A DNA stretch of 64,000 nucleotides, from the NCBI GenBank assembly GCA_000091205.1, contig AP006489.2; one strand, written 5' to 3'. A program made the position numbers and the translations under genes. Under the pieces are notes generated by a model. It searched no databases. It was not told the DNA's origin and worked only from the letters and a program-made list of their open reading frames with translations. Below, in pieces: positions 17,511 to 61,189 of the stretch; within the stretch, counting starts at the first letter, position 1, and each line of letters opens with the position of its first letter. This stretch comes from Cyanidioschyzon merolae (taxonomy: Eukaryota).

Positions 17511-17807
17511 GTGTCCGCCCGACGGGACGATCACGAGACTTTGGTGACACCGAGGACACGAGTTGAACGAAGCCCTGCATTGGCGCGTACCACCAGAGGC
17601 AGTTCACGCGAGACGTTCACGAACCGAGGCGTTAACGCCACCATTAATATCAGACGTTGTGCGGTGCGGAATACGAGACCTGAGAAGTTTAGGCGATCTA
17701 ACTTTGTGGAGCAGCCTCTCAGGGTCGAAGTGTGCATGGAGAAGCTGAAGCCGATAGCACGCGCCCCGTCGAAAAAGGCTGAGAGACGTCTCCACATCAG
17801 GGGTTAG
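17511..17807 (+). mobile_element. TnpB/Fanzor-like C-terminal fragment
   Basis: ...TFTNRGVNATINIRRCAVRNTRPEKFRRSNFVEQPLRVEVCMEKLKPIARAPSKKAERRL aligns with 51624..51887 (MEFMNLDFNAAINIRRSAILKTGPAELTRANFVGQPVKVEFYKEQPKPISLEQSKKARRRL) and with 31676..31308 on the minus strand. Confidence 0.5.
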
Positions 17808-20888: not shown

Positions 20889-22364
20889 GGCCAGTCCAGG
20901 GGCAACGTTCCAAGCGGGACTTTTGTTTCTGCGGCTGTTCCAAAAGCCATGAAAGGAGAGTATCCAGTGGAGCTCGCAAATGAACGCATTGGCAGCGCGT
21001 CGTTCGTACCAACGAGGCCGAGCGCCACCAGCGACAACGTGTTGCTGCTCCTGAGACCGTGTGTTCGTGCTGCTGTTATTGTGCCTGGCAATGTAGCTGT
21101 TGCGGTGTCCAGCGACCTGGTGGTTGCATGGACCGAATGCGGTTAGCGGAAGCGCCAGGGTCCGGCTGCTGGGCTGCGGTGCACAAGACGAACCGGCCGA
21201 CTCGCTCGAGACTCGCGAGACGCGCTATTGCACCTGAAGTTGCTCCTACAGCACGGCAAACTTTACAAGACTCCCTGAGAGCGGTATCGTGTACTGGTGA
21301 AAGAGCAGCCAACTGCTGGTGCCGGGTCTAGCAGAGGCAGCGCTGAGCCCCTGTTGATGTGCGCGCCGCTTTTGAACACGGGAATCGTCCGTTAAGGCAC
21401 TCATGGAGAAGGGGCACCTGCTCCCCATCGCGTCCCACTGCTGGAACTTGAACCGCCATCGACCGACATTGCTGCGTCCCTAGCACGCTTTGTGTCCAGT
21501 TGCTTGTTCAGGGTAGCTTGCTACCGCAGCAGAATAGAACCTTCAGTCGGGAGCAGGTTTCCAGGTTGCGTCATTTTGGCTCACGCTTTCCCTAGCGTTC
21601 AGAACGCTGCAGCATCCCGTTGCTTGCCCCGCACGTACTGTGAAAGTATCACTCTCCGATGAAGGCATTGGTGCTTTCCAGGGCGCAAGGAGCTTTGGTG
21701 GGGTTCCATTCCCGCAGATGATACGGGAAGAGTCTCCATACACTTGAGGGAAAGAAGCGGCAGTCACCGTGGTCGAGGTCAGCGCCTCGATAGAGTCCTC
21801 GTATCCGAACGCGGAGCGTGCGATGCACCGCCCCGCCCCAAGGAAACGAATACGTTGGACCTGTTTTTCCATGGGCCACCTCGATGTGTCGTTTGTCCCG
21901 CATGCATGGTATCGCTCGCTCATGGGCGGGTGCACTGTCCACTGATATCTTCGCTGCACCGCAAACAAACAGCCCGCTGGCGTGATGTCCATAGCGGTCC
22001 GATGAACGCCAGCACAGCCAAGAGTGCACCGTTTCTGTGGCGTGTGTGTGTGTGTGTGCGTAATCGAAACAACAAACCGAGCGCTATCGGGTGCACGGAG
22101 CCTACCTGCTGCCGAAACATAATCCCCTACTCAGCTGCCGCCCGTTGTATGCTCTAGCCCTATACCGGTGCTCTTTGTTGAAATGAGACGCACCGGTACC
22201 GTGAGCATCGAGTCAGCGTTCCGGTGAATGCTCACCATAGCAACAGACTACGTCTCTAGTTTTGCAGGTAGCGCAGCGTTCGTCCGAGCAGAGAGTGCGC
22301 CCTCTCTGAACACCAACTTTGTCTTTTCCAGCCGCGGGGTGCGTCCCGTTCGGTTTTTTTAGTG

Positions 22365-23322
22365 AACTGGACTCGTGATTTGGACTAGCCGCGTTCGGAT
22401 ACACGAACACTGCAGGCTTATTATAGAGGAACTATCGGTAGTGCCTTTCCAGTCGCCATTGCAGCCAATACCGATCTCTACGCTCTCCGTGAATTAGACC
22501 CGTGATTCCAACCACACTCATTCGGATACTAGAACACTGCACGCTTGTTATAGAGGAACTATCGGTAGTGCCTTTCCAGTCGCCACCGCAGCCAATACCG
22601 ATCTCTACGCTCTCCGTGAATTAGACTCGTGATTCCAACCATACTCATTCGGATACTAGAACACTGCACGCTTGTTATAGAGGAACTATCGGTAGTGCCT
22701 TTCCAGTCGCCATTGCAGCCAATACCGATCTCTACGCTCTCCGTGAATTAGACTCGTGATTCCAACCATACTCATTCGGATACTAGAACACTGCAGGCTT
22801 ATTATAGAGGAACTATCGGTAGTGCCTTTCCAGTCGCCACCGCAGCCAATACCGATCTCTACGCTCTCCGTGAATTAGACCCGTGATTTCAACCATACTC
22901 ATTCGGATACTAGAACACTGCAGGCTTATTATAGAGGAACTATCGGTAGTGCCTTTCCAGTCGCCATTGCAGCCAATACCGATCTCTACGCTCTCCGTGA
23001 ATTAGACTCGTGATTCCAACCACACTCATTCGGATACTAGAACACTGCACGCTTGTTATAGAGGAACTATCGGTAGTGCCTTTCCAGTCGCCATTGCAGC
23101 CAATACCAATCTCTACGCTCTCCGTGAATTAGACCCGTGATTCCAACCACACTCATTCGGATACTAGAACACTGCACGCTTGTTATAGAGGAACTATCGG
23201 TAGTGCCTTTCCAGTCGCCATTGCAGCCAATACCGATCTCTACGCTCTCCGTGAATTAGACTCGTGATTCCAACCATACTCATTCGAATACTAGAACACT
23301 GCAGGCTTGTTATAGAGGAACC
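22365..23322. repeat. 127-bp tandem satellite, about 7.5 units
   Basis: The anchor gaattagac recurs at 22491, 22618 and 22745 (period 127). Units carry shuffled variant sites (cattgcag/caccgcag, cacact/catact, caggcttatt/cacgcttgtt, gacccg/gactcg). The ORF track shows no ORF of 60 aa or more across the array. Confidence 0.9.
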
Positions 23323-26916: not shown

Positions 26917-28701
26917 TGTTCCCCTACAGACTACACCGCCAGGGCCTGCGGCAACAAACGCGCTGTAGAGGCAGCGCGTTTCTCCACGGCGATATGCGAT
27001 ATTTGCCGCCGCGTCCACGCACTGCACCATTGCGTACCGGGAGGCGATGCCTCGAACTGACTGTGCTCGACGAGTGTGCGGTTGATATCGGTTGCTGGAG
27101 GCACAAATTTCGAATTATCGGGCGACAGGTCCACGATCCTACTCCAGGCAAGTGCGACTCGGCTTGTCCGCCTGGTCATTGTGGCCCAGAGCGCGAGCGA
27201 GCGCCACCTTCCGGCGCCTGTGAGGCTGCCTCGGCCCCGGTACCACGACGTATGCAAGTTCCCGAAACGAGGTCCTCTATGCTACTGGTTGTCCACGTGA
27301 TCAGTCGGTGCCTGTGACTGAGCCTTCTCGATGACATTCGCTCTCGTCGATCATATTTTCGTGCTTCGCAGCGGCGCGTGCAGGCGAACGCTGCGATCCG
27401 GTGCGGCAACCTTGCAAGCGCGAATGCCCTGCTCTTGATAATTCGATGCTTTGCACGCGCAAACGGGTTTGAGTCACAACTATCTGCATAGGATCATGAA
27501 AGACGAACCGGTGCAATGAGGCATTCAGGAACGGGCGCACGGGCCTCGGAGTACCGGCTCTGAGCGGGCGATGTCGACGAGCGCGTCGTCAATACGCGAT
27601 TGCGACCAACTTGGGGCCGCAGCAAGCATCAGCGGCCTCTCTGGCAACGCATCGACAACGAGACGAGAGACTGCTCACGTTAGACGTGCAACCTGATTCC
27701 ATCGAGGCCATGGGAATCGCCAGACTCGATACAGGGTTGCGGGGCACGGCCGTCGATTCGCCTGCAACGACATACGACGCTGTTGCTGTTGCCCGGGACC
27801 ATGCCATCTTCAGAGCGAGCGATCGACTTTGAGCGGGGCCCTCACATCCGACCAGCGAACAACGTGTCAAACTCTTGGACTGGAACGCTCGTTCTTCGTA
27901 GCAGGTAGAGCGAAGCGCGATGATAACCCATCTCTAACCATAAAGTACCCTGCTCGCGTGCACGTCGTTGTCGCTTTCCTCGATGGCTTCCCGAACGCAA
28001 CACGCAAGCGTCTTGCAGCATGCATCTCCGTAGAACGTCGCTATGTCGCGAACCGACACGCACAAGGGTATAGGAAAGCTGTTTAGCCGCTGTGCTGCAT
28101 CTGTTCCAGCGGTTTGAGCGCTACGGCGGACGCTCCAAGCACGAACTCGGCGCACGATAGAACGTACAAGACGACCAGTGCATCTGGATGGGAGTATCAG
28201 CAATGCAGCTTGGAGGCAGGGTGCAACAACATCATGGACGCTTTCCCGAAAGCCTATTCCCATCCGAATCGCACTCTGGAGTCCGTGATCGAAGGCAACG
28301 TTTTGCGATCGGACGCGCAGATCCTCAATCGCCGCGCATGCATGCTCGTGTTGCCATGCCGCGCAAGTGCATTGCGCTGGGGCGGCGAGGCGCGCTTCTG
28401 TAACTGTGGCACATTTGTCTAATACAGGCGACGCGCCCCCGCAGCAGCCGCAGCGACTGCATATCGGGTCGAGCGGGCGTGCAGGCATACGCCACGAACG
28501 CTGGCGCATGCTCGCGTGACTGCGGGCATTTTTCAAGGTCGACTGTCGGAACGTACCGTAGTGGAGCTGCACACGGGCGTACCTCTCACTTGTTTGAGTT
28601 AACTGTTTGAAAACATAGCGCGTAATTGATCAGAGAGGGGTTCGGAGAGAAAGAGGGGTGAAACGCTGTCCTGGGCGCTGAATTATTCGCAGCACGGACG
28701 A

Positions 28702-29853: not shown

Positions 29854-30025
29854 CACAGATTTGGTCACGACTCGACTCGGACCTGCTAGGTTGTTCGTGG
29901 ATGCGGCATGGAAGCGGGCACATTGGCACTGGAGCAGTGCGCTGCAGCCTGAACCCGCAGGCTGTGACACCCGCACCAGCGTGAAATTGAACAGGCTCGC
30001 GTACTTAACTAGGGCATACATACCA

Positions 30026-31311
30026 AAGGCCGTTCTCTTGCGACTGTCAAAAATACCAGCCTTTGCGGAGCGGTTTTCGCGACTGTTTCCTTTTCTTCTC
30101 TCTTATCTCCGGATTTCTATACGATGGTCTCTCGTTTCACCCCAGCTCTGATGTCAGCTGTTGAAGGAAGCGGATGGCAGTGCTCAAATCTCGATCTCAC
30201 TGATTCCGGCGGTTTTCGACGACTCCTATGCCCGGGCATAAGTTGCCCGTGATGCTTCCCGTGCCATTTTCATCTGCTTGGTTTACAGACCGGGTGCGCA
30301 TGTCAGAGCGATGACAAGCCCTATGGTGGTCAAGTGTTCCCGTGTGTCCACCGAGCCTCCGTCTTGTAAATTCGCTCTGTGACTCGTACAGGCTTGCTTC
30401 ATCGCTCGGCATGTGTCCAGGTGAGGTGTATCGGACGCTCATCTGGATACCCGACTCCGTCTCCGCCTCCATCTTCGCAAACCGAGGCACTCTCCTACGA
30501 TCACGCGCTTCTTCTGAGCGATCCTCTAGGCGAGTTTCCTGCCCGCTGCACGAGCCAGTGTGCGCTGCCTCATTTGATATACGACTTGTGGACCGTGATG
30601 GTGTACGTGATGAAACAAGTACCGGAAAGAATATCCAAGTTGGAGACCAAGTCGCGAAATTCGGATCCGTCTACCCACTTGCCATGCAAACCAGTGACGC
30701 ATTTTCCAGAGGAAGGGATCGCTGCGAAGCCTGCAGTCCCAGCTCGAGACACTTGACGATGCAAACACATGAGACGGGAGCTTCTTGGAACACATCCTTT
30801 GACAAGGTTCCAGCTGGTTCCGCATCTGGTTTCATCGGTGGCTGCAAAGAATGGAGCACTGGTGTTTCAAGCGGAATCGCTCATTTGAGGTGAGAATCTC
30901 AGTGAGGGTTCGGTATGGGTTTTTTTTTCGGAGGACCGGTCAAGGACTGACGTCGCATCGTTTCCTTTTTTCTATGGACCTATCAGCGCGGAGCGGAACG
31001 TCCACGAGTTACCGTGAATGAGAAAACACCAAAGACTCGAAGCATGTGTGATTTGAGCGTGCCTCACACACGAGAAGCGGACGATTATGGTATGTAACGA
31101 GTCATTGTTCGAGGACGTCCGGAATCATGGTTATTTCGCTGATATCATGAATGCCGGGGACAACGCGTCCATAGAGCGATTCCGACGAGCCGAGCGAGAT
31201 TCCCAAAAGCACCAAAGAATCCGTAGGGCTTTATTCCAGCACTTTGAATAACAAGGCTGTGCATCGAAACAATTTTCGAAAAGCGTTGTATACGAGAAAC
31301 AGTGCGACTAG
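30026..31311 (+). mobile_element. Non-autonomous TnpB/Fanzor-like element copy A (1.29 kb; RuvC-II-like core to degenerate RuvC-III plus conserved 3' tail and hairpin box)
   Basis: ORF 30342..30893 reads ...RRVSCPLHEPVCAASFDIRLVDRDGVRDETSTGKNIQVGDQVAKFG...TSDAFSRGRDRCEACS...GVSSGIAHLR-stop. It is about 98% identical at the nucleotide level over its whole length to 59686..60972. The unit begins tctcttgcgactgtcaaaaatacc and ends gtgcgactagttcag. Confidence 0.6.
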
Positions 31312-31676
31312 TTCAGTGTTACATTATTATCCGATACCAGTGTAGACTTCAAAGAAGCGTTTGTGATGTGTGATCTGTGAAACCGAAAAATGTCCTTTCC
31401 CATCGAGGGTAAATGTAGATCCACTTGCAGACGCGAGCCAGCCTTTTCTGACATGCCGACTGCTATCGGTTTAGGTTTCTCCTTGCAGACTTCGAGTATT
31501 AGACGCTGCACCATGGAGTTCGCTTGCGTCATCTCCTCGGATCTCGTCTTCAGCGTCACACAGTTTCTGGTATTCTCAGCAGCGTTGAAGTTTCGATTCA
31601 CGAACTCCATGTATTTCTCGCTGCTGCTCGTACTCATCAATGGAAGCATTCCCCGAACTTTTGCCCTCCGAGCCAC
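31308..31676 (-). mobile_element. TnpB/Fanzor-like C-terminal fragment (minus strand), abutting copy A
   Basis: MARRAKVRGMLPLMSTSSSEKYMEFVNRNFNAAENTRNC...QANSMVQRLILEVCKEKPKPIAVGMSEKAGSRLQV is colinear and roughly half identical to 51624..51887 (MEWRAKVPGLLALVSTSGGKKRMEFMNLDFNAAINIRRS...). Confidence 0.5.
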
Positions 31677-32095
31677 TTGCGTCTTGTCATTGTCCCGTGG
31701 GGCGAAGAGCTTTGCTCGCCCAGCGCCCGCTTCTTCTTCTTCTTCTTCGTTACTCGGCTATCTTCGCTCGACGGTCGAAGAGAAGGGCATGTATTCCCTT
31801 TGTTTCTGGCCTCCTGGATCCTCGCTTTCCATGTCGACACCTTTCCCTTGGATTTTTATTTCTTCAAATGAATGCACTTTGAATGTTTCTACTATAAAAG
31901 GCTAAAAAGCATTTGATGCCACGCACCTGGGCATGGAGCACAACTGAGCTGAAAGACCACAGCGAAGCAGCATCATCCTCCAGGCTGCTGGAACGCCGCT
32001 CTAGCCTTCAACACCTCATCTTCCTAGACGCTGCTTTTGCGGCAACCGCGGCTGCCGCATGACCTAACCATAGCTCATGTTCACTACCTCTCCGA

Positions 32096-41560: not shown

Positions 41561-42039
41561 GCGATGGACGCACTAGAAAGCGGACGGAACCTGACAGACC
41601 TTGCGCACAAGTCACACTTGTGTAAACAACCAACGTTCATGTGCGAGGAAGCATCTGGAGTATGTCACACGCGTCGTTACGCGCGTGCCGCTGTCGTCGG
41701 TGCCAGCGGGCCGGCGCATGCCTTGCTGCACCCGCCGCAGATGCGATACGCGTGTCTAATGATGACAGAACACGGAGCTGCTGCTTGCTCGGTACCTGCA
41801 CGTGGATTCTGTTTCAGAACTTGCTCTAGGCGGACATCATCGACATTTGGAGTGCAGCGATAAAGGCCTAGGGATTCAGACGTGGGTTAAGGGTTCTCGG
41901 TCTTCTGTTCGAGGTGGCTCGTTCGACGCCTCACCGCTGGAATGCTCTATCTGGTCAGCGACACGATGATTCGCTACGCTCTTGGACAGGAATGCATAAA
42001 CGATCCGATATATGGATCGAATGGATACGTATAAGCACC

Positions 42040-42757
42040 GATACCTCTACGCTGCCCACGAGTAGCATGCGTGAATCATGCATGCTTCAATGTTGCGATC
42101 TGTTTGCATGCGACTCATGGGCGCTGCAATATGCGGCGCTGGATCGACACGCAAACAACACGAAGGCGTCCTTTCATGCTTTGTTCTCAAAACTGCGGCC
42201 AAAAAGTTCATTGTACGTGTCGCGTCGAATGAGCAGTTGGTTTCGAAAGACAGATCCCCTTCTCTTTGCGGTCATCGACGAACGACGTTCCGCGGTAGCG
42301 CGACACATTTCACGGAATATGCTCGCAGAGGTTCCCGCTGCTTCTTTTTGCGTGCGAATGTGTCTTGCACTCGAACTTGAATCACTGCAACGATTGCTTC
42401 CAGTGGAGCATGCGTCGTCGCTTTGCGCGCGAACGGCGTCCAGACGGATCGAGGTGTCCCGACATGTTCTCCAATCTGGATTTTCATTCCGGTGCTTGTT
42501 TCGTAAATAACGACATTGCGTTCCGTAAATGCCCTGTCGAATCGAACAGCAGGCTCTGATGTGCGCAGCGGATAAAGCGTTCGCTCATGGGATCGTCCAG
42601 AAGACGCCCGTGATCGTACGATATGGAATGGGTCGCGAACCCAGAGCAGGATATCCCGGGAAGCCTCATGTACCCGCCAAGGGCATATCCCGAGCGATGG
42701 ACCGAGCGTACACGAGAAACAGAGCAACCCCCGGAAGAGGATGCATGGTGGACACAC
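42040..42757 (-). mobile_element. TnpB/Fanzor-like relic copy D (RuvC-II-like core plus downstream hairpin box)
   Basis: ORF 42272..42757(-) reads ...YPLRTSEPAVRFDRAFTERNVVIYETSTGMKIQIGEHVGTPRS..., aligning with the CPL..FD..VEC.VVYDETSTGK.I.IGEQV core. The box gaagcatgcatgattcacgcatgctactcg (reverse complement of 42061..42090) lies downstream. Confidence 0.45.
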
Positions 42758-43676
42758 CTGGGGACGCCTGACCGCAGTTCAGTGTCACCGCTTCGATAAT
42801 CTCCGCATATACCTTCGGTGCGACCTTCGCAGCGGTGCCCAAAATGTAGATCGCGTCTTTTGGCTGTGCATCAAGTTCAGCGACAACAGCCGAAAGCGGA
42901 AAAATCTGCACCTTATAGACGCTATCCATGCGCTTCGACCCATGACAACGAAGGTGAAGCGCACGGAGAGAATTTCGTGCAGTGAACCAGAAAGAACTGA
43001 TGGGAAAAGGAAGCAGTTGAAGAAGAAGTCTGCAAGAGCCGGAGTTGATAACCATAGGAACACAACAAAACCTGAGTACGTACATCCGAGCATGGCAAGT
43101 GGACCCATTTGCTTTTACACGTTCATATACGCATGTGTAGGCAGCTTGACGAAAGCGTCCCATGCTGGTGCCAACGCGGAAGCGCCCCGCGTGTGCGAGT
43201 TCCCGTTGATACTCAGCGCCCTTCAGGGTGCAGTCAGGAGCCCGGTGCACGCATGTCTGCGCAGACCCGTCAAATCCCAACCGACGAGACGTCATACACG
43301 AACTCCGAATGAAGTGCGCGTCCAACCGATGCGCTTCAAGGCACAGGAACGCGATTCCGTGTCCGAGCGGTGATCGTTGGTGTGTCGCATCGGGCGTCGC
43401 CGGCTGAGCTGGGCATTCGGAGAATCCATAGCCCTGGATCCAGCCTGCATTACCGTTGGTAGGACTGGCATGAGGCTGACGAAACGTTTTCATAGCTCGA
43501 GAGGAGCCATGGCGCTCGATTTCCCGGCTGAAGGCAGCAGCGCAGGCGCCCTCGCGAAATGGGCGCTCTCCATGCCGCGGGCGTCTGCCGCTCGACAACG
43601 AGATTCCTGGTAGACGAAACATGATATGTATCATATGCGACAATCATGAATCTTTCAGTCACCTGCGGACAGAGGC

Positions 43677-45922: not shown

Positions 45923-48718
45923 TCAGACGGACTCTCCGCGCCGATGCCGCGAAGCATTCGCCGTCGAGTCCTCGGTCAGATGTTGCGCTTGCAGTCGAGC
46001 CTCGAGCCTTGAGAGCTCGCGCTTCTCCAAGAGGTCCCTGATCACTGCAGCGAGCTCAAAATCCAACTGTGCAGCAGCTTCATGCATGTGCGTACGAAGC
46101 TGCTCATCGTCCAAGGCGCCAAGACCCGCCGGTAACCTGCCCCCGAGGCCCATTTTCGAACTGGTCTTCTCTCGTTTCAGATAGGGTTCATGCTTCGCAA
46201 GAATCGAACGCGGCTCCATTCCATATTTCGCGTTGTAGGCTGCTTGTATAGCTCGCCGTCTTTCGGTTTCTGAGATCGCTCGCTGCATCGAGTCCGTCAG
46301 CGTATCCGCGTAGAGCGTCACGGTGCCGGCTACGTGGCGCGCCGCACGCCCCATTGTCTGAATGAGTGCGGTCTCGCTTCGGAGGAATCCTTCCTTGTCC
46401 GCGTCGAGAATGGCCACCAGACTGACCTGAGGGAGGTCAAGGCCTTCCCGAAGAAGGTTCACGCCGACGATCACGTCACAGCTTTCTGTGCCAAGGGCTG
46501 AGAGCACCTCTACCCGCTCCAGAGCGTTCAGTTCGGAATGCAAGTAGCTGACCCTGAAGCGCTGTTCGCGGAGGTAACGGCAGAGTTCTTCAGCCATTCT
46601 CTTCGTTAGGGTGGTAATCAGGGCTTTCTCTCCTCGCTGTACTCTTTGGCGAAGCGAAGCGGCTAGGTGTTCGATCTGGCCCCGGGTAGGGTGCACCTGA
46701 ATCCGCGGATCAAGCACATGCGTCGGGCGAATCAACAACTCCGCCAGGGCACCGTCGGCGAGACACAGTTCGAATGGGCCCGGTGTAGCTGAAACAAACA
46801 CGCAGCGATGGACCTTGGTCCAGAACTCTGACTCACGAAGCGGTCGATTCTCCAGAGCGCTCGGTAGACGAAAACCGTAACGTACCAGGTTTTCCTTGCG
46901 TGCGCGATCTCCATGGTACATACCCCGTATCTGCGGAACCATAACATGGCTCTCATCGATGATGAGTAACCATTCGGGGGGAAAGTAGTCCAGTAGGCAC
47001 TCGGGTGGTACATCTGGTGCCCTGCCCGAGAGGTGCATGGCATAGTTCTCGATTCCCGAACAGTAGCCGTGTTCGCGCAACAGCTCAAGGTCCTGGGTCG
47101 TGCGTCGCTCCAGACGCTCGGCCGCGTGGTGCTGCCCTCGCTCGCGGAGCCGTTTGCAGCGGCTTTGTAGTTCAGCGGCGATAGCCTGGAGCGCCCGCTC
47201 GCGCTCCTCCTTGGGCGTCACGAAGTGCCGAGCGGGATACAAGGTCACATGGGAGCTGTATTCCACATCCGCTCCCGTTTCGCGATCCACATACCTGAGT
47301 TCGACAATTTGATGATCCTGTACATCGATGCGGAGTAATAGCTCCCGCTCATCCCACGACGGTAGCGAAACCTCCACCGCCGTATCCCTGATCCGAAACG
47401 TACCCGGATCGCGGGGATCGGCTCTGCGTTCGTAGAGCATGGCCTCCAGTTGTAAAACGATCTCGTCGAGACTGCAGACATCACCGAGTTTAAGGCTTGT
47501 CGCTGCTCGAAGGTACGTTGACGGCATGCCGAGGCCGTAGATGCACGATACTGACGAGACGATGATCACATCGGGGCGCTCGAACAGGGCGCGCGTGGCA
47601 GCATGGCGATAACGATCAATGTCCTTATTGATGCTTGCCGACTTTTCGATGTACGTGTCTGTGGCACTGTTGTAGGCCTCTGGCAGGTAAAAATCATAAT
47701 AGCTCACGAAAAACTCGACTGCATTCGATGGGAAGAATCCCCTCAGCTCACGATACAGTTGTGCTGCGAGCGTCTTGTTCGGTGCGAGTACCAGGGTTGG
47801 TCGTCCGTATTGCGCGATCACATTTGCGATAACGAAGGTTTTGCCAGTGCCCGTAGCGCCTTTAAGGACCTGGAATCGTTTCGAGGGCAAACGATCTACG
47901 AGGCACTGAATGGCTGCAGGTTGATCAGCGGCAGGTGTGTAGGGCGCGACCAGCTGGAAACGCTGATCAGGCAGTCGCGCAAAATGCTCTGCCAGTGTCT
48001 CCTGCTCTGCGCTTCTGCGAGGCGATATCGAAACGTCTGCGGGTATCGGTAGAATTTTGGTCAATGGAACAATTTGATCTGCGTCGTCGGAATAGCGGAA
48101 GATGTGCCAGCCGTGCTGTTCGAGGTGTTGTTGAGCGTCCGCGTCCAGTCGCCCGCGTCGAAGCAGCAGCGCCAGTTGTGTACAGAGTCGCCACATCACT
48201 GCATGCCGTGCAACAAGTCGCTCTGCGTCGGGTCTTTTCAGTGGCAGCTTGCGTTCTATGACAATGACCGCCATACTATCGTCCAAGTACAGTTTCATTG
48301 ATCGGGAGAAGCGAGCGTTTTTGGTGATCGCGTGCTCCGCACTCCCATTGCACACCTCTTGTACGAAGCGAACAAGTCGCTCAAATGGAGGCCGCTGCTC
48401 GGTCGCCACACGCGGATCCAAGGGACGCCCGTGTGCAGTTGCTGCAAGCACCGCTCGGCTCGCATCGTTCGTTGCGTTGCAGACGAGCGTCAGCGAAGGC
48501 CAGCGCCCGGCGCCGTTGGCGAGCAAGCGCATCACGACTGGGCCGTGGAACACCCCACCACCGATCCGCAAACGACACAAACATCCCGCGTTCCTCGCTA
48601 AACCTGACCTGCATAATCCTAAATTCCCTATGAGGAACATACACGCAAGCGCGTCAAAGCACAGACGAGAAGAGTTCAACACAGACACACACTCGACAGA
48701 GTTCACGCTGGTGCGCAA
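45923..48718 (-). CDS. uvrB: UvrB (bacterial-type excinuclease ABC subunit B) with 230-aa N-terminal extension
   Basis: The ORF is colinear with bacterial UvrB from about residue 230 to the end, with long identical blocks: VLKGATGTGKTFVIANVIAQYGRPTLVLAPNKTLAAQLYRELRGFFPSNAVEFFVSYYDFYLPEAY, TLTKRMAEELCRYL, LLREGLDLPQVSLVAILDADKEGFLRSETALIQTMGRAAR, and a C-terminal UVR domain (LDFELAAVIRDLLEKRE). Confidence 0.9.
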   Translation of the reverse strand: MRTSVNSVECVSVLNSSRLCFDALACMFLIGNLGLCRSGLARNAGCLCRLRIGGGVFHGPVVMRLLANGAGRWPSLTLVCNATNDASRAVLAATAHGRPLDPRVATEQRPPFERLVRFVQEVCNGSAEHAITKNARFSRSMKLYLDDSMAVIVIERKLPLKRPDAERLVARHAVMWRLCTQLALLLRRGRLDADAQQHLEQHGWHIFRYSDDADQIVPLTKILPIPADVSISPRRSAEQETLAEHFARLPDQRFQLVAPYTPAADQPAAIQCLVDRLPSKRFQVLKGATGTGKTFVIANVIAQYGRPTLVLAPNKTLAAQLYRELRGFFPSNAVEFFVSYYDFYLPEAYNSATDTYIEKSASINKDIDRYRHAATRALFERPDVIIVSSVSCIYGLGMPSTYLRAATSLKLGDVCSLDEIVLQLEAMLYERRADPRDPGTFRIRDTAVEVSLPSWDERELLLRIDVQDHQIVELRYVDRETGADVEYSSHVTLYPARHFVTPKEERERALQAIAAELQSRCKRLRERGQHHAAERLERRTTQDLELLREHGYCSGIENYAMHLSGRAPDVPPECLLDYFPPEWLLIIDESHVMVPQIRGMYHGDRARKENLVRYGFRLPSALENRPLRESEFWTKVHRCVFVSATPGPFELCLADGALAELLIRPTHVLDPRIQVHPTRGQIEHLAASLRQRVQRGEKALITTLTKRMAEELCRYLREQRFRVSYLHSELNALERVEVLSALGTESCDVIVGVNLLREGLDLPQVSLVAILDADKEGFLRSETALIQTMGRAARHVAGTVTLYADTLTDSMQRAISETERRRAIQAAYNAKYGMEPRSILAKHEPYLKREKTSSKMGLGGRLPAGLGALDDEQLRTHMHEAAAQLDFELAAVIRDLLEKRELSRLEARLQAQHLTEDSTANASRHRRGESV

Positions 48719-49704
48719 CTGTCATGTCCGCCTGCCAACGGATTACAGGAGCGCGCTCCTTTGACGGGCGATTTGCTTTGCGTTTTCTCTCGGCGATCAA
48801 AAGTTTACTTTGACCATGCATCCCAGATTGCGGGATGCGTATTGGCTTTCGGAAAAGCGTCCTTAGGGCTGCGCAACACTACCAAGTTCCATGACGTAGA
48901 CTTGCATTCGGATGTACTGGACGTTTAGTACGTTCTATCGTGTGCCGAGTGCCTGCATTACTGCACCAGCCGTATCGCATATGCCTCTGTTACGGATCCA
49001 GCACGGAGACGGAACGGCTTTGCCATAGAACAGAGGGCGTCGGCTCGAGGTATGATTCATTCAACATGGAATCGGGATTCATTAGCCTGCTGGGAGCGTG
49101 CAAGCTGCGCAGACACACATGCTGCCTGCGACAGCGCGAAGCGACATACGAGGCGGATACCACGCCGACCAGGGCGATGCCCAGACGCAGCCTGTCCGCT
49201 GGCAGTCCCAGATTACACTGCGTTCCGGATGAGCTGCTGACATTTCCCTACAGGACTCGCCACTCGCGAGGGCATCGTGCACTAGCCCGATAGACTCGTC
49301 CGGCTCGCGGAACTTTCTGCCTAGAAAGAAGAGTTTCGAGGATACGGAAAGCGTTTCCCCCTCCTAGCGTTCTTCGTAGTGGGGGCGGGAAATCTTTATC
49401 TCGTTGCTGGTGAATCTTGAGTCTCTGTTCTTTGCCCTGAATAGCGCGCTCGATACGTGCGCCTTTATATTTGGCAGGAATTGAACATGTCCTGCTTCTC
49501 ATCGTTGAAGAGAAGCGCAATCCTGATCATTATCGTGTTGCAGCAAGGTGCAATGTGGATTTGCATGAAAGTCGTCGCAAAGTATAGTTGTGTATCTCAA
49601 TTGGGTTTCAATCTTTACATTTGTGGATTCAAGTGCTTTTTCGCTGTGTATAACAAAAACGTTCAAAGTGCGTTCTCTTTTGCAAAAGGAAAGAAAGGAA
49701 AGTT

Positions 49705-51887
49705 ATGGAAGTAGAAGTGGAGGATCCTGCAGGCCTGGTGTCGGCGGCTGCCGCAGAGAACAAAAAACATTTCCGGCACCATAGGAACGGGAAAAGACGA
49801 AGAATCAACGGGAACGAGGGAGGGCGGACGTCAGACGCCGCACGAAAAACGACACTACGACGAGATGTTCGTGAAAGCTTTTCTTTCAAGCCGTATCGAG
49901 GATCCCTACAAGCAACCGTTGCAAGAGGTCATCAGAAACCCTGTCGAATCATATTCCAGGAGTGCTCAAATCTCCTGTTTAGGACTGATGCATATGACGA
50001 GGGAGATGTATCGCGGCGTGACGCGCATAGAAAGAGTCGAGGTTCCGGAGGAATTTTCTAACGAGACCTTCATCCGCCACTTGATGCTTGGCACGGGGGA
50101 AACCTCGAAGAGAAATGAGCGAGCGCATGACGTACAGGAAAATGACACCGAATTCCGCTTCAACGGTACTCGATACAAGTATGACGGGGACATTCACACC
50201 TACGGGGCGATCTAGTACCCCAGGATCCTGAGGAACCCCATGATCGTAAACTTCGACCGCATCATGATACGCTCCGTCTTTGCACTGTAACCGGGCCTCT
50301 CTCGCAAAGGGATATGGGCTATCGTCGATGGCATCACGAACGATAGTGACAATGAAGAGGAGACCGAATTCGCCGAAAAGAAGGCATCACCCGGGAGCAT
50401 GAATGAAGCTTCTGTGCTCCGTGCGGCTCTTCGAGAGCACCGTACGGGTTGGCGTTAGCCAATCCTGCAGCAAAGGTATCAGAGATGAAAAGAGATGCTA
50501 TCCCCTCATCCTGCGCTATTTCGTGTTCCTGAACCGAGAGCTCGAACGCAAGGCGGAGATGGAGCTGGATGTGGAAGCAAGTGAAAAGTCGGTGAAACGG
50601 AAGGCTGCGCTTCTGAAGAGGCGCTTCAACCTCGTTCTGGAATGCAAAAGCAAGTCGCGCTTTGTGGCTAGCGATTCCAGATTCCTTCGCTGCTCCAAGG
50701 AGATCTGTCCGAAATTCGATGTTCATAACAAGGAATTCACGGGAGAAAAACGGTGAGACTCATCGGAAGAATATCTTCGATTTCAAACGTCTCAAAACGA
50801 GCAAGAAAAAGGTATTCACGGTGACGATCGACAGCGATGGGGTATCCATATGTGTACATTATCGGCGGTTGAAGGCGGATCGTCCAATTGTGCCTTCGGC
50901 TTCGCCCGCGGCGAGGCACGAAGAAAACACGGAGGCGGGCCCTGGATCGTATAACCCCCAGAAGAACGACATCGTGGCAGGCGCAGACCCCGGGAACACG
51001 TATATCATAACCATCGCAGTGCCCAGGGGTGCGAAAGATGGTATTGCTGGCGGCTTGCGTCAGAAAGCCATGAGTCTTTTAAAGCACTCAAAAGCGAGAT
51101 ATTACCGAGAGTCTAGGATAATTCATGCGAGGAAAAAAGTGTGACGTAGAATGCAGCCGGGAAGGCGCACCTGGAGGCGATCAGCCAGGTGACGGGCCGC
51201 CGAGCGGACTCTGAAGCTTTTCAGGAATTCATGAAAACTCATGCTGCTCACTAGGAGGAGCTGTGGAGAGATTACGCAAAGCTCCGGTTGGCTCGTCAGC
51301 GTATGAATCTCTACTGTGGGAAGCAACATGCGTTCGCCAACTTTTTCAATGAGTTGAGCGCCCTGGAGGAGGACGAGAGTCAAACGCTCGTAGTAGCATA
51401 CGAAGCAGGGCGCTCGATGAATCAAAAACGGAGCATACCCGCTCCGTAAACCACAGCGTACAAGGAGTGTGCACAGTGTTTTGTCATAATACCGATAGAT
51501 GAGTTCCGAACGTCATATACGGACCATGAACGGGGGTATACACTTCACCGGGTCGAGATGGAAAAGTGCCAGAGGAGCCCTGTGAAGATATAGAAAAGTA
51601 AGGAGAGCTGACAGAAGAGCAAAATGGAATGGAGGGCGAAAGTTCCAGGGCTACTTGCACTGGTGAGTACAAGCGGTGGCAAGAAACGTATGGAGTTTAT
51701 GAATCTTGACTTTAACGCCGCTATCAATATCAGACGAAGTGCGATTCTGAAGACGGGACCTGCAGAGCTGACGAGAGCCAACTTTGTGGGGCAGCCAGTC
51801 AAAGTCGAGTTTTACAAGGAACAGCCGAAGCCGATATCACTCGAGCAGTCGAAAAAGGCTCGGAGGCGTCTACGCGTCGGTGTATAG
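49705..51887 (+). pseudogene. Fuller-length TnpB/Fanzor-like RuvC nuclease gene, frameshifted (at least 4 frame changes)
   Basis: On one strand, in canonical order: a basic NLS-like N-terminus (KKHFRHHRNGKRRRINGNEGGR, ORF 49705..); Ruv[21 protein letters not shown] (Asp codon at 50986; compare Cas12/TnpB GIDRGERNLIYITVI); a RuvC-II-like block ...EEDESQTLVVAYEAGRS (about 51370); a zinc-ribbon remnant KECAQCFVIIPIDEFRTSYT (about 51480..51516); and RuvC-III MEFMNLDFNAAINIRRS (Asp codon at 51708). The GC content is visibly lower than in flanking host genes. Confidence 0.55.
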
Positions 51888-53024
51888 ACATATACGCTCT
51901 GGGTCTCACGGAAGCAAATGCAACGATGCGCTGTCCATTGGCGATACGCTGCACGCGTTTCAGGCAACGAAGGTCGCTGCTGTGAGTCACGGCAGCATCG
52001 ATGCCCACGAGAAAGGCAGTTCGATGCAACAACCTCACACCACACAGGATCGTTCTCTGCGGACAAGGCGAATCGTTCACACTGCTGCTCGGTGCCGGAT
52101 TGGCTTCAGATGCCGGCGATGATCTCTCCTCGTTCATCAGCGTCGACAGCAATCCGAGTCGCCCCGAGTCCGGGCACTGAATCGATGCAACTGTGGCGCA
52201 ACCATGTCAGATACTGTGTCGCGTTAGCCGTGAAGCCCGAACATGCAGTCATGTATGTGATGGTCTGCATCCAGTGACTGCAGCACTGCATCGGGGCGCT
52301 TTCGGGGCGTGCACAGGTGCCTCTGGGTCGATGATCCTGGCGAGCGGCGAGACGTCCGCGAGCATCCTCGCAGCGAAACAATGGTGATAGATGCGTCATC
52401 CTCGCATGGCTGCGTCCTCGCGAATAGCGTCGAGCGCGCTTGCCATGAGGCTTACCAGCATCGACCGAACAGACCAAAATCCCCAGAGGAAGGTACGGTC
52501 AAGGGCCCACGGGAAGCATTGGTGGTAGAATGCGGGCTGATGATTGATTCCCTCGATGCCGATACGCATCGCACGCGGAGGAACTCCATATCAAATGAAA
52601 CGATCCAAGTTTTCGTCACGTGAGCGAAAAGTGCAACAGGCTCGCATCGTCGGGCATACACGCTCAAGTTTGCGTCGCTTCCTGGTGTCATGAACAACAG
52701 CGTTCGTATGCGTTTTCTGAGATTGCTTCTTTTTCCTCTCTCATATTTCCGGCTTCAAACTACGTCGGTCTCTATTGTCCATCCAGGCTCTGTTGCCAGC
52801 AGTCGAATGACGTTCTTAGCCGCGGAAACGTTCCGATTTCGCTGCTTGCCGCTGTTGTCGACGCATTTCAAGTAACGGCGGTCGTTGCGATCCATGGTTC
52901 GATGGCCAGTTTCATCTTCTCTCTACACAGCCTCGGAGCGCCTTTTGTGGCGGCCAAACTTGGCAGTGATCAGGCGTTCTCGAATGTCCGCTAAACCTCC
53001 TGCTCCTCGTACGGGCGCCGCTCT

Positions 53025-53700
53025 GTGGCACGAGAATGCATGCTTCGCCTCTCAGCACATGCACTTGACGAACGCAGGAGGCTACCCTCGATGTCTGTCT
53101 CCGGTTTCCGCGCCCGACGGTATACACCGGGATCACAGGCTTCCTGTTGGCGAACTCCGCAAAGCGCTCTCTGTCCGTTGAACGCGCCTGCGAACACTGT
53201 TCCAATCGATGAAGGATGTGTGGAATGCGAAATTCTCCTAGATGAAACAACTACAGGAAAGAAAATCTTGGCTGTAGAACAAGTCGATAGATTTCGATCC
53301 GCTGACGTTTTTTAGGTAAAAAACGGTAACGCATGCTCCACTGGAAAGCATCGCTGCGGTGGTTCAAGTTCGAGTCCAGGACATTTTTCCGTGCAAACAC
53401 GAGAAACGGGAGCCTCCTTGAGCACACCCTTTGACAAGTACCATGATGCTGTCGATCGCCGCGTTCTCGATGGCTACTAAGAACCGAGGATTTGTGTTTC
53501 AAACGGAATCGCTTGTTTCAGGTGAGAATCTCAGTGAATTTTCGGTACGAGGGTACGACCTAGCCGTCAATGGATAACGTGGCGCTTTTTTCATCGTCAA
53601 TCTAGAGGCACAGAGCGCTGCGCCCTCGAGTTGCCTTTGTACAGAAAGTTCGAGAACTTGAAGCATGTGTGATTTGAGCATGCTACTCGAAATGACCGAA
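53025..53700 (+). mobile_element. TnpB/Fanzor-like relic copy C (RuvC-II-like core plus conserved tail and hairpin box)
   Basis: ORF 53025..53315 reads ...LCPLNAPANTVPIDEGCVECEILLDETTTGKKILAVEQVDRFRSADVF. The tail gtgtttcaaacggaatcgcttgtttcaggtgagaatctcagtga (53497..53540) and the box gaagcatgtgtgatttgagcatgctactcg (53660..53692) are shared with copies A, B, D and 1. Confidence 0.5.
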
Positions 53701-54845
53701 AAAAATCGAGGCTTGACAGTTTAAACTGGATCGTAATACTGGTCAATTTACGAACCTGTGTGCGACAGCGCCGCGAATCCTATTCATGCTGATGTCATAA
53801 CGAATTCCAGCAGAAGAAGCGTTGAACGGGTCACGCAGAGAACAAGATCATAAATCCTAAAACAACATATGGATCTGCACGCCCCTATTGCTGCACCACG
53901 AACATGGAGGCTGTCTATGTAAAAAATTTGGAAGAAAATCAAACAGCAGGAGCAGAGCGAACACTTCCGAGTTCCCTTTTCATCTGACAAATGGGTAAAC
54001 GAGGAAACAAATGCGGTTCCGCGACGGGCGCACCAATCGATCCTGACCCTGCGACGTACACCGCCGCGAGATACGTTTTGTTTTCCGGTGCACGATCGAT
54101 GATCCTGACTCTAAGAATCCCTCTGAAACCGCAGTTGCTGTCGGCAGTTCGGGAAACGACCGCTGTATCCCTCCAGGCCCTTGTCCATTTCACTGACGCT
54201 GGGACGGTCTATCCGTCAGAGATACGCTCTAGAGGGATCGAGTGAGCCGCCAGATGCCGAGCTTGCATAGGCGCTCGCAACAACGCAGCATTCGCCAACT
54301 CTCTGCATGCTCATCTGGGGATAGGATCGCTCTGCGGTGCCTGCATACCGGCATCGGGTCAAGCAGCATAATACGGTGCTTGCACTTGTCCATGACAATC
54401 ATTCAGCGTGCTCATCGATTCTACGCGATCGATGTTTTGGAAAGAGCGCTCGTTTTCATTCTGGTTTCTGATGCGCACAACCGGAGCCTTTGATCGACCT
54501 GGAAACAGTAGATCCTCGACAGCGTGGATCTGCGACAAAACGTCTCCTGGGCAATACTCGCGTTTTACCGTTGCTTGTGTCGCGTTATACCTGAATGCTG
54601 CCGTGCGCCAGCGTTCATGCGTCGGGACATTGCGGCGCTGGAGACCGCATTCTGTACAGCATCAGTTCGATGAATCGAACGACATGTTCCCAGATGCACG
54701 AGTGCTGGCGCGTACCCGGCACCAGGGCGCCATCTCAACGCAGGCGAATGCTCCGGATCCCGAACGAGAGCGAAGACATATCAGAGTCCGTCCAGTTTTG
54801 CGTTGCATCACGCAGCACGTCGGCAGCATATCCTCGAGTACATCC

Positions 54846-55541
54846 AAGTCGGCGTTATTCTGGCATGTCTTATTCAGACGAACCCGGATGCACCTCTCGC
54901 CTGGTGACTTTGCTTACGATACTAGCGGATACAAGTCGGCGTTATTCTGGTATGTCTTATTCAGACGAACCCGGATGCACCTCTCGCCTGGTGTCTTTGC
55001 TCACGATACTAGCGGATACAAGTCGGCGTTATTCTGGTATGTCTTATTCAGACGAACCCGGATGCACCTCTCGCCTGGTGACTTTGCTTACGATACTAGC
55101 GGATACAAGTCGGCGTTATTCTGGCATGTCTTATTCAGACGAACCCGGATGCACCTCTCGCCTGGTGACTTTGCTCACGATACTAGCGGATACAAGTCGG
55201 CGTTATTCTGGTATGTCTTATTCAGACGAACCCGGATGCACCTCTCGCCTGGTGACTTTGCTCACGATACTAGCGGATACAAGTCGGCGTTATTCTGGTA
55301 TGTCTTATTCAGACGAACCCGGATGCACCTCTCGCCTGGTGACTTTGCTCACGATACTAGCGGATACAAGTCGGCGTTATTCTGGTATGTCTTATTCAGA
55401 CGAACCCGGATGCACCTCTCGCCTGGTGACTTTGCTCACGATACTAGCGGATACAAGTCGGCGTTATTCTGGTATGTCTTATTCAGACGAACCCGGATGC
55501 ACCTCTCGCCTGGTGACTTTGCTCACGAGACTAGCGGATAC
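54846..55541. repeat. 87-bp (29-codon) minisatellite, 8 near-identical units
   Basis: Units start at 54846, 54933 and so on up to 55455 (period exactly 87), with only 3 variable sites (ggcatg/ggtatg, tgactt/tgtctt, gcttac/gctcac). Two plus-strand frames stay open through the array, giving ORFs of 412 and 428 aa. Confidence 0.9.
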
Positions 55542-56248
55542 CGCCGTGCAGCACGCCTCCGGGTCGCCACACATGATATGCCCGTTAGAACAGGGCTCTC
55601 TGGCCGGGAAACACAGACTTGTTTCGGCGCTGCGACTGCTGCTTGAAGGTGCTCCCCCGTGGCCCAAACGAACTTCCTGTGGCAGTCCCATACCACGCAT
55701 CGCGCCTTGCTACCGGGTGTCAGGTCCAGCACCGCTCTCAGGGCCTCCGCTTACCTCACGACGCTCTTCTCGAACTGGTTTCGAGCTGCATGCACGCTGT
55801 TTTCCGAAACGCTTTTCTAACGAGTTCCGCAGGCGCCGTGTGTCCCGCTGCGTGTTCGCATGCGACTGTCACCAGAAGTAGCGCCCGCGTTCGAAAAAGG
55901 ACAAAAGACTTTCGTTCGCCTGGTTGCCTATCGCCGCAAAAGCGATATCACACATATCCGTCTACACCATGCGCTGTATATACTTGTTCGTCGCGTTCAT
56001 CTCCGGTTTCAGTGCTACGAACACTGGTTGAAAAGGCGGTAAGCGCTAGCCGCAGCTGGCGTCAAGCGCGTGGGTTGGGGTCGGCGCGCCTTCGCCCCAG
56101 GCTCCATCGACACCGTTTGCGGAGGCGACGACGCTTTGGAGCGCTGGACGTGACGGGTATCGTTTCTGTTATCTTTCGTAACGCCACGCTGGAAGCGAGT
56201 AAATAGTGTTGTTCTGGGGGAGTGCTGTGGAACTTGCCGGTGGTTCAC

Positions 56249-59391: not shown

Positions 59392-59685
59392 GGTCCATGC
59401 TTTTCAAACGGCGCTCTTGCTGCGTCTTGAACCGCCGTTCTGCGGCCTGATGTAAGCGCTTCGTAGTCCAAGGGGACGTGCAGGATACGCAACTGCGTCG
59501 ACCTAACGACGTCGCGTTGGGTGAAGGTCCCCGTAGCTGCGTAGCTGTGGCCGGCTATGCGCGGCCAGGCGAAGCGCAAGTCCTTCCCTAGGAGGCCAGC
59601 AGTTTGATCAACTTGTATCGCCTGTACCGTACGATACGCTAATGAAACCGGTTAACTTTGCGAACTCGGGTGTGCATGCTATAGT

Positions 59686-60972
59686 TTGAGTCTCTTGCGA
59701 CTGTCAAAAATACCAGCCTTTGCGGAGCGGTTTTCGCGACTGTTTCCTTTTCCTCTCTCTTATCTCCGGATTTCCATACGATGGTCTCTCGTTTCACCCC
59801 AGCTCTGATGTCAGCTGTCGAAGGAAGCGGATGGCAGTGCTCAAATCTCGATCTCACTGATTTCGGCGGTTTTCGACGACTCCTATGCCCGGGCATAAGT
59901 TGCCCGTGATGCTTCCCGTGCCATTTTCATCTGCTTGGTTTACAGACCGGGTGCGCATGTCAGAGCGATGACAAGCCCTATGGTGGTCAAGTGTTCCCGT
60001 GTGTCCACCGAGCCTCCGTCTTCTAAATTCGCTCTGTGACTCGTACAGGCTTGCTTCATCGCTCGGCATGTGTCCAGGTGAGGTGTATCGGACGCTCATC
60101 TGGATACCCGACTCCGTCTCCGCCTCCATCTTCGCAAACCGAGGCACTCTCCTACGATCACGCGCTTCTTCTGAGCGATCCTCTAGGCGAGTTTCCTGCC
60201 CGCTGCACGAGCCAGTCTGCGCTGCCTCATTTGATATACGACTTGTGGACCGTGATGGTGTACGTGACGAAACAAGTACCGAAAAGAATATCCAAGTTGG
60301 AGACCAAGTCGCGAAATTCGGATCCGTCTACCCACTTGCCATGCAAACCAGTGACGCATTTTCCAGAGGAAGGGATCGCTGCGAAGCCTGCAGTCCCAGC
60401 TCGAGACACTTGACGATGCAAACACATGAGACGGGAGCTTCTTGGAACACATCCTTTGACAAGGTTCCAGCTGGTTCCGCATCGGGGTTTCATCGGTGGC
60501 TGCAAAGAATGGAGCACTGGTGTTTCAAACGGAATCGCTCATTTGAGGTGAGAATCTCAGTGAGGGTTCGGTATGGGTTTTTTTCGGAGGACCGGTCAAG
60601 GACTGACGTCGCATCGTTTCCTTTTCTCTATGAATCTATCAGCGCGGAGCGGAACGTCCACGAGTTACCGTGAATGAGAAAACACCAAAGACTCGAAGCA
60701 TGTGTGATTTGAGCGTGCCTCACACACGAGAAGCGGACGATTATGGTATGTAACGAGTCATTGTTCGAGGACGTCCGGAATCATGTTTATTTCGCTGATA
60801 TCATGAACGCCGGGGACAACGCGTCCATAGAGCGATTCCGACAAGCCGAGCGAGATTCCCAAAAGCACCAAAGAATCCGTAGGGCTTTATTCCAGCACTT
60901 TGAATAACAAGGCTGTGCATCGAAACAATTTTCGAAAAGCGTTGTATACGAGAAACAGTGCGACTAGTTCAG
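59686..60972 (+). mobile_element. Non-autonomous TnpB/Fanzor-like element copy B (about 98% identical to copy A at 30026..31311)
   Basis: Same termini and internal sequence as copy A. ORF 59999..60673 is identical to A's ORF except for a few substitutions (for example GKN to EKN) and a +1 insertion near 60483 (gcatcggggtttcatc against gcatctggtttcatc) that shifts the C-terminal frame. Confidence 0.6.
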
Positions 60973-61189
60973 CCTTCTAGTTTCATCGAAGACGAATGCG
61001 TCGTAAGCACTGATGCTGGACAGCATTGCTGCCGCTGCAGCACTCTTTGTCTACGTATCGTCCACTGAATAATCAGTTCGTGTGCAGACGGAGTGCTCAG
61101 GCCGCTCAGTGTCGCAGCCTAAGTTGCTCCGTTTGCGTTTCATCGTAAACTGGTTCGCAGACCGCTAGAGCCGCACCTGCTATCGGGTT

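Follow-up and report, generated by a model that had tools for sequence, protein, structure and literature searches.

The window analysed here is a 64-kb stretch (64,000 nucleotides) of the Cyanidioschyzon merolae genome whose neighbouring genes encode KIN17, a RAD18-like RING protein, an Mpv17/PMP22 protein, and a flavin monooxygenase (FMO), together with a PP2C–kinase fusion, a histone deacetylase, and a Myb protein. Of ten ORFs compared, nine are identical to proteins of strain 10D of this intron-poor red alga. The same stretch harbors five copies of a repeat family of ~1.35 kb, which align over one common span. Two of them, A and B, lie 29.7 kb apart in the same orientation on chromosome 7. 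The other three (c1, C, and D) are the much more diverged copies that an initial annotation of this DNA had already recognized, and they share 53–59% identity with A and B when gaps are counted and 65–71% within BLAST segments. Using the published CMe-1A consensus and CMe-1 protein as blastn and tblastn queries, we also located in the window remnants of this C. merolae Fanzor1 element, described with a 3,169-bp consensus and ~150 copies that are ~80% identical to it (Bao & Jurka 2013, PMC3627910).

29985..31331, minus strand: whole element at locus A, ~1.35 kb (alignments, anchored flank tests)
30034..31316: near-identical tract of copy A, 1,283 bp (self-BLASTN, MAFFT)
31317..31331 and 29985..30033, minus strand: locus A outside the tract, 5′ terminus (15 bp) and 3′ terminus (at most ~49 bp)
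30140..30831, minus strand: Fanzor1 C-terminal relic of copy A, four disruptions, all of them also in B
59641..60987, minus strand: whole element at locus B, ~1.35 kb (alignments, anchored flank tests, sliding identity)
59691..60972: near-identical tract of copy B, 1,282 bp, 98.52% identical to A, with abrupt edges
60973..60987 and 59641..59690, minus strand: locus B outside the tract, 5′ terminus (15 bp) and 3′ terminus (at most ~50 bp), family-homologous
59797..60489, minus strand: Fanzor1 C-terminal relic of copy B, 225 consensus codons, five disruptions
~2821..4164, plus strand: diverged copy c1 (alignment; P0157 tblastn, E=6e-12)
3627..4037: best-kept relic ORF, in c1, reading ...VDIWEHMTT...RNRDSNAAINIFRL (PF07282 E=5e-4, below the cut-off)
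~41758..43114, plus strand: diverged copy C (alignment; P0156 tblastn, E=3.8e-5)
~52628..53984, minus strand: diverged copy D (alignment; P0157 tblastn, E=2.6e-4)
48799..51881, plus strand: full-length, decayed CMe-1A, 79.5% identical to the consensus over 3.1 kb
31416..31957, minus strand: 3′ fragment of CMe-1A (blastn/tblastn)
28049..28311, 17378..17800, and 5934..6018: further CMe-1A fragments (blastn/tblastn)

A Fanzor1-derived repeat family

Judged by its sequence, the family is a non-autonomous derivative of a eukaryotic TnpB-like transposon of the Fanzor1 type, of which it represents the 3′ part. An element holds what corresponds to the last 140–210 codons of a ~700-aa Fanzor1 gene and ~190 nt of 3′ sequence, with ~700 nt of further sequence 5′ of the Fanzor1-like codons. 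The features kept in the family are the RuvC-II glutamate, the zinc ribbon, and a RuvC-III motif, 'RNRDxNAAINxLR'; in A and B themselves, decayed leftovers can be read as the RuvC-III remnant 'DRDLSTAIRF' and as 'SVDTREHLTT'. A family consensus built from four independent copies restores an ORF of 225 codons (...KKPVISVYGVGRGNG..PVKG...VDTREHLTT..C...RNRDLSAAIHVLRL). It runs on the strand opposite the plus-strand ORF that the initial annotation had discussed. That plus-strand ORF is indeed frameshifted between the copies—183 aa in A and 224 aa in B, shifted by the +1 insertion in copy B—but it is antisense to the Fanzor-like frame, and the relic itself lies on the minus strand.

The assignment to Fanzor1 draws on profile and homology searches. 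On a profile of Fanzor1 C-termini made from green-algal and oomycete sequences, with no C. merolae sequence included, the consensus ORF took the top rank (E=1.5e-5) in a set of 1,636 six-frame fragments from the window, followed by the relics of c1 and D. P0126, a family member that comes from a hot-spring metagenome and is better preserved (...MDISEHPTTPMYHRCEAC...RNRDLNAAINLLRL), matched the same profile at E=1.5e-11, with the RuvC-II glutamate, a CxxC, and the RuvC-III aspartate all aligned. The Fanzor1 C-terminal pattern—the glutamate in 'hDEhxTS/T', the zinc ribbon, and 'RD(x)NAAxNI'—is present both in the consensus ORF and in P0126. In a representative library of 1.8 billion proteins, P0126 has 162 homologues, the long ones among which (682–764 aa) align at their C-termini; six of ten long homologues pass the Pfam cut-off for PF07282, the TnpB/Cas12f zinc ribbon. 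Two of these homologues, P0156 and P0157, are complete Fanzor1-like proteins that carry LDPGRVNLY (RuvC-I), VDVWEYNTTQKCHRCG, and RNRDFNAAINIL, and at 35–47% identity are the closest intact relatives of the family. By tblastn, P0157 matched the family consensus at E=2.7e-23, and both proteins reach the consensus, c1, C, and D directly, though only from residue ~520 onward.

The N-terminal part, with REC/WED and RuvC-I, is thus missing. No profile match to RuvC-I ('G[VLIA]DPG') appeared in the sense frames of eight copies and the consensus, tblastn found no counterpart of 'LDPGRVNLY' from P0156 and P0157 in the family sequences, and a complete nuclease is excluded because a 1.35-kb element is too short for ~700 aa. 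The reading of A and B as non-autonomous relics of the TnpB superfamily devoid of RuvC-I, put forward in the initial annotation, is therefore borne out by the Fanzor1 profile matches and the null result for RuvC-I. The loss is not special to A and B, since the whole family is without this N-terminus.

None of the copies retains an intact ORF; in each, four to five stops or frameshifts interrupt the 225 relic codons. Copies differ to the same extent at the three codon positions (0.39/0.42/0.41), which indicates that they are decaying neutrally, and A and B, 62% identical to the consensus at the protein level, are as decayed as the other copies. The antisense frames are equally open, so that the Fanzor frame does not stand out by its number of stop codons. 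Pfam returned nothing on any ORF of the A/B unit; it is, however, an unfair test for Fanzor1, as even the published CMe-1 protein scores only E=0.52. Neither the consensus ORF nor P0157 had a relevant match among PDB sequences. RNAalifold predicted no conserved pair in the 3′ regions of seven copies, which are too decayed for this result to speak against a fold in their ancestor. The window has no match to Rfam and no tRNA, and a homologue search with the relic ORF of c1 retrieved only its own orthologue.

CMe-1A is joined by the 1.35-kb family as a second, decayed family of Fanzor1 origin in C. merolae. Both are of the Fanzor1 type, reside in the same genome as many old copies, lack terminal inverted repeats (for CMe-1A, with target-site duplications undetermined: Mob DNA 4:12, PMC3627910), and have the RuvC-III motif 'NRDFNAAINI' in common. 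They differ in length (1.35 kb versus 3.2 kb) and in the absence from the 1.35-kb family of the first ~520 residues, including RuvC-I. Moreover, P0126 and the CMe-1 protein are only 22% identical (E=4e-6), and the nearest intact relatives of the family, P0156 and P0157, belong to a Fanzor1 lineage other than that of CMe-1A. Searches by blastn and tblastx of the 1.29-kb unit and the family consensus against CMe-1A gave chance matches only. We also considered termini shared with CMe-1A—GATGA.AAA at the 5′ ends, and TGCAAGGCG versus TGAAAGGCG near the 3′ ends—and discarded them as not significant. At two independent loci, a CMe-1A fragment is projected to have its 3′ end no more than ~10 bp from the 5′ end of a family element; at locus A, this applies to the fragment at 31416..31957.

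In addition, the family resembles bacterial TnpB-only elements of the IS200/IS605 type in carrying a relic of the same nuclease superfamily without terminal inverted repeats or target-site duplications, and in needing a partner for movement. It is unlike them in its eukaryotic host, its Fanzor1 lineage, and its ancestors of ~700 aa. Neither TnpA nor subterminal hairpins nor a conserved omega-RNA-like fold was detected for the family within the scope of the window. The IS200/IS605 (TnpA-Y1) framework in which A and B were initially placed does not suit a eukaryotic host and a unit without inverted repeats of note.

Extent and edges of the shared tract

Self-BLASTN and MAFFT placed the near-identity of A and B in a single co-linear tract (30034..31316 and 59691..60972) with 98.52% identity over 1,284 alignment columns, in agreement with the two near-identical copies of the same orientation described initially. 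The differences amount to 16 substitutions and two indels, and to 19 columns with differing state. One indel is the extra 1 bp in copy B that shifts the plus-strand ORF, the other a poly-T length change of 2 bp; both had been called correctly. The tract runs from TCTCTTGCGACTGTC... to ...GTGCGACTAGTTCAG, exactly the end motifs quoted in the initial annotation, whose coordinates were nevertheless off by 5–8 bp (copy A does not span 30026..31311, and copy B does not start at 59686). At its boundaries the tract reads TCTCTTGCGAC... and ...CTAGTTCAG. Alignment inspection further revealed a 7-mer, TGCGACT, 5 nt and 9 nt inside the tract ends, in A and B only.

These edges are abrupt. A and B do not differ at all in the 62 bp and 129 bp nearest the tract ends, and just outside the tract 23 of 50 and 7 of 15 positions differ. 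At the divergence of the tract itself, the chance of observing 7 differences in 15 would be 9e-10, and that of 23 in 50 would be 6e-29. Put differently, identity falls from ~99% inside the tract to 8/15 and 27/50 (~54%) beyond it, which is the level of the family.

The sequence beyond the edges still belongs to the repeat. Read in Fanzor sense, every copy starts at its 5′ end with a version of GATGAAAAGGGAACA, and the tract begins 15 bp later; past the 3′ end of the tract, family homology continues for 35–50 bp more, with a 3′-terminal consensus of ...C.CAAACTT.AGCATGTA.GCCCGAG...GAACC.GTT.CATT. We assessed the flanks by anchored semi-global alignments scored against 2,000 random window segments, local alignment with +2/−3 scoring being too stringent at ~60% identity and hence uninformative. 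The first 50 bp of the left flank of B matched D, c1, and C (p<0.0005 each), and the 50-bp left flank of A matched D (p<0.0005) and B (p=0.002). For the right flanks (16 bp), A matched D, c1, and C at p≤0.004 and B matched D at p=0.004. In 20-column windows, identity among D, c1, and C across the A/B boundaries was 0.62 at the 5′ side and 0.73 followed by 0.58 at the 3′ side, compared with a core mean of 0.57; there is no discontinuity at either boundary, and chance level is reached only from 35–40 columns past the 3′ one. As the family alignment stays in register beyond either end of the tract, these are not the ends of the element, and at both loci the near-identical stretch sits in register within older paralogous sequence.

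The element carries no terminal inverted repeats, nor notable subterminal ones, in keeping with the initial statement that there are none. Helitron-like ends (5′-TC, 3′-CTRR, A/T insertion) were considered and ruled out by inspection of the junctions.

The initial annotation had offered recent transposition or segmental duplication as the source of the A/B pair, and neither account is supported by a tract that stops 15 bp and 35–50 bp short of the family termini. A transposed or duplicated unit would bring its own termini or land in unrelated DNA. A variant of the mobility account might still accommodate the flanks if the 1,283-bp tract were itself a mobile unit, recently moved in trans by an autonomous partner, and the family-like flanks its preferred, repeated target. 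The very sharp tract ends favor this view, and a step from 100% to ~54% without an intermediate zone would fit true ends of a mobile unit; so do the absence of terminal inverted repeats and of a target-site duplication, in which the pair resembles CMe-1A (PMC3627910), the 7-mer near both tract ends in A and B only, the difficulty of canonical recombination between ~57%-identical copies, and the existence of intact 680–760-aa relatives in public data. It would, however, demand a specific 'target' of at least 50–65 bp that is present at all eight family copies examined, as far as that end is covered in them, and because this 'target' decays at the element's own rate, it belongs to the element. 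No break occurs in D, c1, and C where the mobile unit should end, no joined empty target occurs in ~200 kb of sequence, the sequence supposedly moved was already as decayed as any fossil, and no intact Fanzor1 partner was found among the C. merolae proteins searched. We therefore regard such trans-mobilisation as unlikely.

Chance insertion of a 1.28-kb piece 29.7 kb away, through end-joining or replication slippage without any role for homology, would agree with there being only two such copies, on one chromosome and in one orientation. Yet the piece would have had to land base-exact and in register inside another family member and to replace the homologous 1.28 kb there—exactly so, as the elements at A and B are equal in length (1,347 bp). 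Not credible without guidance by homology, non-homologous segmental duplication is effectively refuted by the in-register flanks, and we consider it highly improbable.

The two loci in wild strains and in a sister genus

Metagenome contigs allowed us to follow both loci outside the reference. Five JGI metagenome contigs contain a 29-mer from the right tract end; one of them has A-type flanks and four have B-type flanks. Clustering at 90% puts the unit's plus-strand ORF into one cluster of 21 members, and all eleven contigs examined from it represent locus B. Several contigs (L018, L030, L032, and L033) span locus B from E2/KIN17 to FMO, and in the locus-B contigs the similarity to copy A ends at the same points. 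Contigs retrieved via the flanking PMP22 and KIN17 genes pass into the unit at the junction of either A or B, and the left boundary is unchanged. No third carrier locus emerged from the metagenome contigs examined; A and B being the only pair there, this outcome, too, speaks against the recent element mobility initially proposed and against trans-mobilisation of the tract.

The same contigs bear on whether the pair could be an error of the reference, that is, a repeat that was collapsed or mis-placed. Metagenome assemblers do mis-join across this repeat, as illustrated by a chimeric contig (L006) in which the left flank of A is joined to the right flank of B. However, both junctions of both loci were independently recovered in many wild-strain contigs, the contigs spanning locus B refute such an error, and A and B differ from each other at 19 columns. 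We give an assembly artefact practically no credence.

At these 19 diagnostic columns, the wild contigs are mosaics of the two states found in strain 10D, and this holds for both loci; the mosaics come from short-read assemblies, with no phasing across gaps of >141 bp between variant sites. Mosaic allelic states across loci are what one would predict if A and B were ancient sister copies that have been exchanging sequence continuously since their insertion, the outermost bases—rarely included in conversion tracts—having drifted apart. Exchange should be easy in C. merolae once copies are alike, and 15 bp and 35–50 bp are plausible sizes for eroded edges. Several observations argue against this scenario. 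There is no gradient toward the edges: differences are zero in the outer 62 and 129 bp and ~46% from the first base outside, although the zone released last should diverge least. Copies c1, C, and D, situated 7–27 kb away, have not been kept alike. Finally, the mosaics may be artefacts, as short-read metagenome assemblies join the flanks of A and B. Continuous concerted evolution thus appears to us rather improbable, if worth keeping in mind.

In the related genus, as represented by Cyanidiococcus yangmingshanensis, the region is syntenic. A search for empty sites, as suggested initially, was successful: both the A and the B site are empty, with a PMP22–RING spacing of 825 bp in Cyanidiococcus versus 2,402 bp in C. 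merolae and a KIN17–FMO spacing of 265 bp versus ~1.8 kb. The sites of C, D, and CMe-1A are short in Cyanidiococcus as well, and its 21-kb locus (L023) contains no similarity to the family or to CMe-1A. The empty sites imply that the family spread in the Cyanidioschyzon lineage. Intergenic DNA of Cyanidiococcus is too diverged for insertion points or a target motif to be defined.

Origin of the likeness between A and B

A and B probably owe their likeness to interlocus gene conversion that took place when an old copy was already present at each locus. Both loci would first have been occupied by old, independently decayed copies of the family. Subsequently, 1,283 bp of one copy (~95% of the element) would have replaced the corresponding part of the other in register, presumably through homology-guided repair in the form of interlocus (ectopic) conversion or synthesis-dependent gap repair, and the terminal 15 bp and 35–50 bp of the recipient would have kept their old, diverged state. 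That A and B agree in register inside older copies at both loci argues for copying guided by homology. The copied sequence was already a pseudogene: all four disruptions of A recur in B, which has five.

Ectopic gene conversion among dispersed repeats is familiar from yeast Ty elements and from the gap repair of transposon breaks in Drosophila. The A/B pair resembles these cases in its in-register overwriting, in flanks and outermost repeat sequence that remained unchanged, and in the lack of a crossover; it departs from usual conversion in that the presumed substrates were far more diverged (~55–70% identity) and the tract spans nearly the whole element. C. merolae performs homologous recombination with high efficiency, including between direct repeats (PMC8504449; PMC3764038). 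Crossover products at these loci would lose 29.7 kb of genes, so that only non-crossover products should survive. The mosaic wild haplotypes back conversion as well, yet constitute weaker support.

The main difficulty of the conversion reading lies in its first step. Independent copies share 53–59% identity with gaps counted, or 65–71% in aligned blocks, which serves canonical Rad51-dependent recombination poorly, and the first conversion, for which short homeologous anchors 15 and 35–50 bp from the termini would be needed, must have been rare. One conceivable trigger is a live Fanzor nuclease whose guide RNA targets the conserved 3′ end, the resulting break then being repaired from the paralogue. 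Were this so, it would explain both the recombination of ~57%-identical fossils and the position of the tract ends near the element termini, and a eukaryotic RNA-guided nuclease would be homogenising, or 'homing' between, diverged dispersed copies. We found no support for this trigger, with no intact partner among the C. merolae proteins, and deem it very unlikely.

Ordinary ectopic gene conversion is the best account of why A and B are nearly identical, and the case is of little importance on its own. The family to which the two belong is not described in the C. merolae genome papers, which put transposable elements at 0.7% of the genome; in the 64-kb window, ~17% consists of such fossils. 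What had been taken for a recent transposition of a bacterial IS605-like element is likely a mis-annotation, to be replaced by a pair of Fanzor1 fossils probably homogenised by repair. For repeat annotation, the lesson is that two near-identical copies need not imply recent mobility; the test is whether their identity extends to the family's own termini.

Wild-strain contigs at copies A and B

The near-identical copies A and B of the decayed 1.35-kb Fanzor1-derived family are flanked by a PMP22 gene on the left of A and an FMO gene on the right of B. On one 7,483-bp metagenome contig (L006; JGI 3300050390), the order is PMP22 gene, a single unit and FMO gene, an arrangement that connects A's left flank with B's right flank and matches the expected product of an A × B crossover with deletion of 29.7 kb. 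However, the assembled sequence also switches to a repeat that matches window positions 6816..7139, and an assembly chimera is therefore the more likely explanation than a true A × B deletion. On another wild-strain contig (L013), the sequence upstream of window position 28520, before the PMP22 gene, had no match to the window (contig positions 1..1764) and carries a 526-aa ORF at the place of the 5′ fragment of the published Fanzor1 element CMe-1A in strain 10D (28049..28311). On the evidence of this one contig, the difference from 10D looks like a repeat presence/absence or structural polymorphism.

Ends and neighbors of the 1.35-kb copies

In both A and B, the 7-mer TGCGACT forms a direct repeat close to the two ends of the shared tract, set in by 5 nt on the left and by 9 nt on the right. 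The pair is restricted to A and B, being absent from the remaining family copies, and its probability by chance is ~2%. At two independent loci, a CMe-1A fragment and a family copy lie in the same orientation, with no more than ~10 bp between the 3′ end projected for the former and the 5′ terminus of the latter. This adjacency may stem from a bias in insertion or from an ancient composite unit.

Tract-end repeats and junctions of family copies with CMe-1A fragments
59696..59702 and 60957..60963, TGCGACT in copy B; equivalent places in copy A
31331/31416 (minus strand), junction in the window
~612/620, junction on L015

Tandem arrays and a UvrB-type gene

The window also harbors two long tandem arrays, of which the one with 127-bp units varies in copy number among metagenome contigs and the one with 87-bp units falls within two ORFs (54408..55646 and 54595..55881).

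Tandem arrays
22362..23321, 127-bp unit, ~7.5 copies, repeats 94–96% identical
54842..55541, 87-bp unit, 8 copies, repeats ~98% identical

Separately, we observed a gene for a UvrB-type excinuclease subunit with a 260-aa N-terminal extension (45923..48718, minus strand) in this eukaryotic nuclear genome. The gene was found in Cyanidiococcus, too, and the C. merolae protein is presumably targeted to an organelle.

Fanzor-type repeat load

Summed over copies and fragments, decayed Fanzor1-type repeats occupy ~11.1 kb, or 17%, of the 64-kb window.

Fanzor1-type repeats counted, in addition to fragments
2821..4164, diverged 1.35-kb copy
29985..31331, copy A
41758..43114, diverged 1.35-kb copy
48799..51881, decayed full-length CMe-1A copy
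52628..53984, diverged 1.35-kb copy
59641..60987, copy B

A third, very distant Fanzor-like sequence (7926..9589, plus strand) was matched by CMe-1, the CMe-1A protein, in tblastn at 24–31% identity (E = 2.5e-18); the sole annotation of the ORF that it includes, CMG116C (8957..9874), is 'hypothetical protein'. Across two overlapping 21-kb loci of Cyanidiococcus yangmingshanensis (VWRR01000017.1), gene order is the same as in the window, and the intergenic regions holding Fanzor-type repeats in C. merolae are all short and repeat-free. The literature figure for C. merolae is 0.7% transposable elements, comprising '8 transposons and 26 retrotransposons' (PMC8504449), a standard estimate that clearly overlooked the Fanzor1-type fossils.
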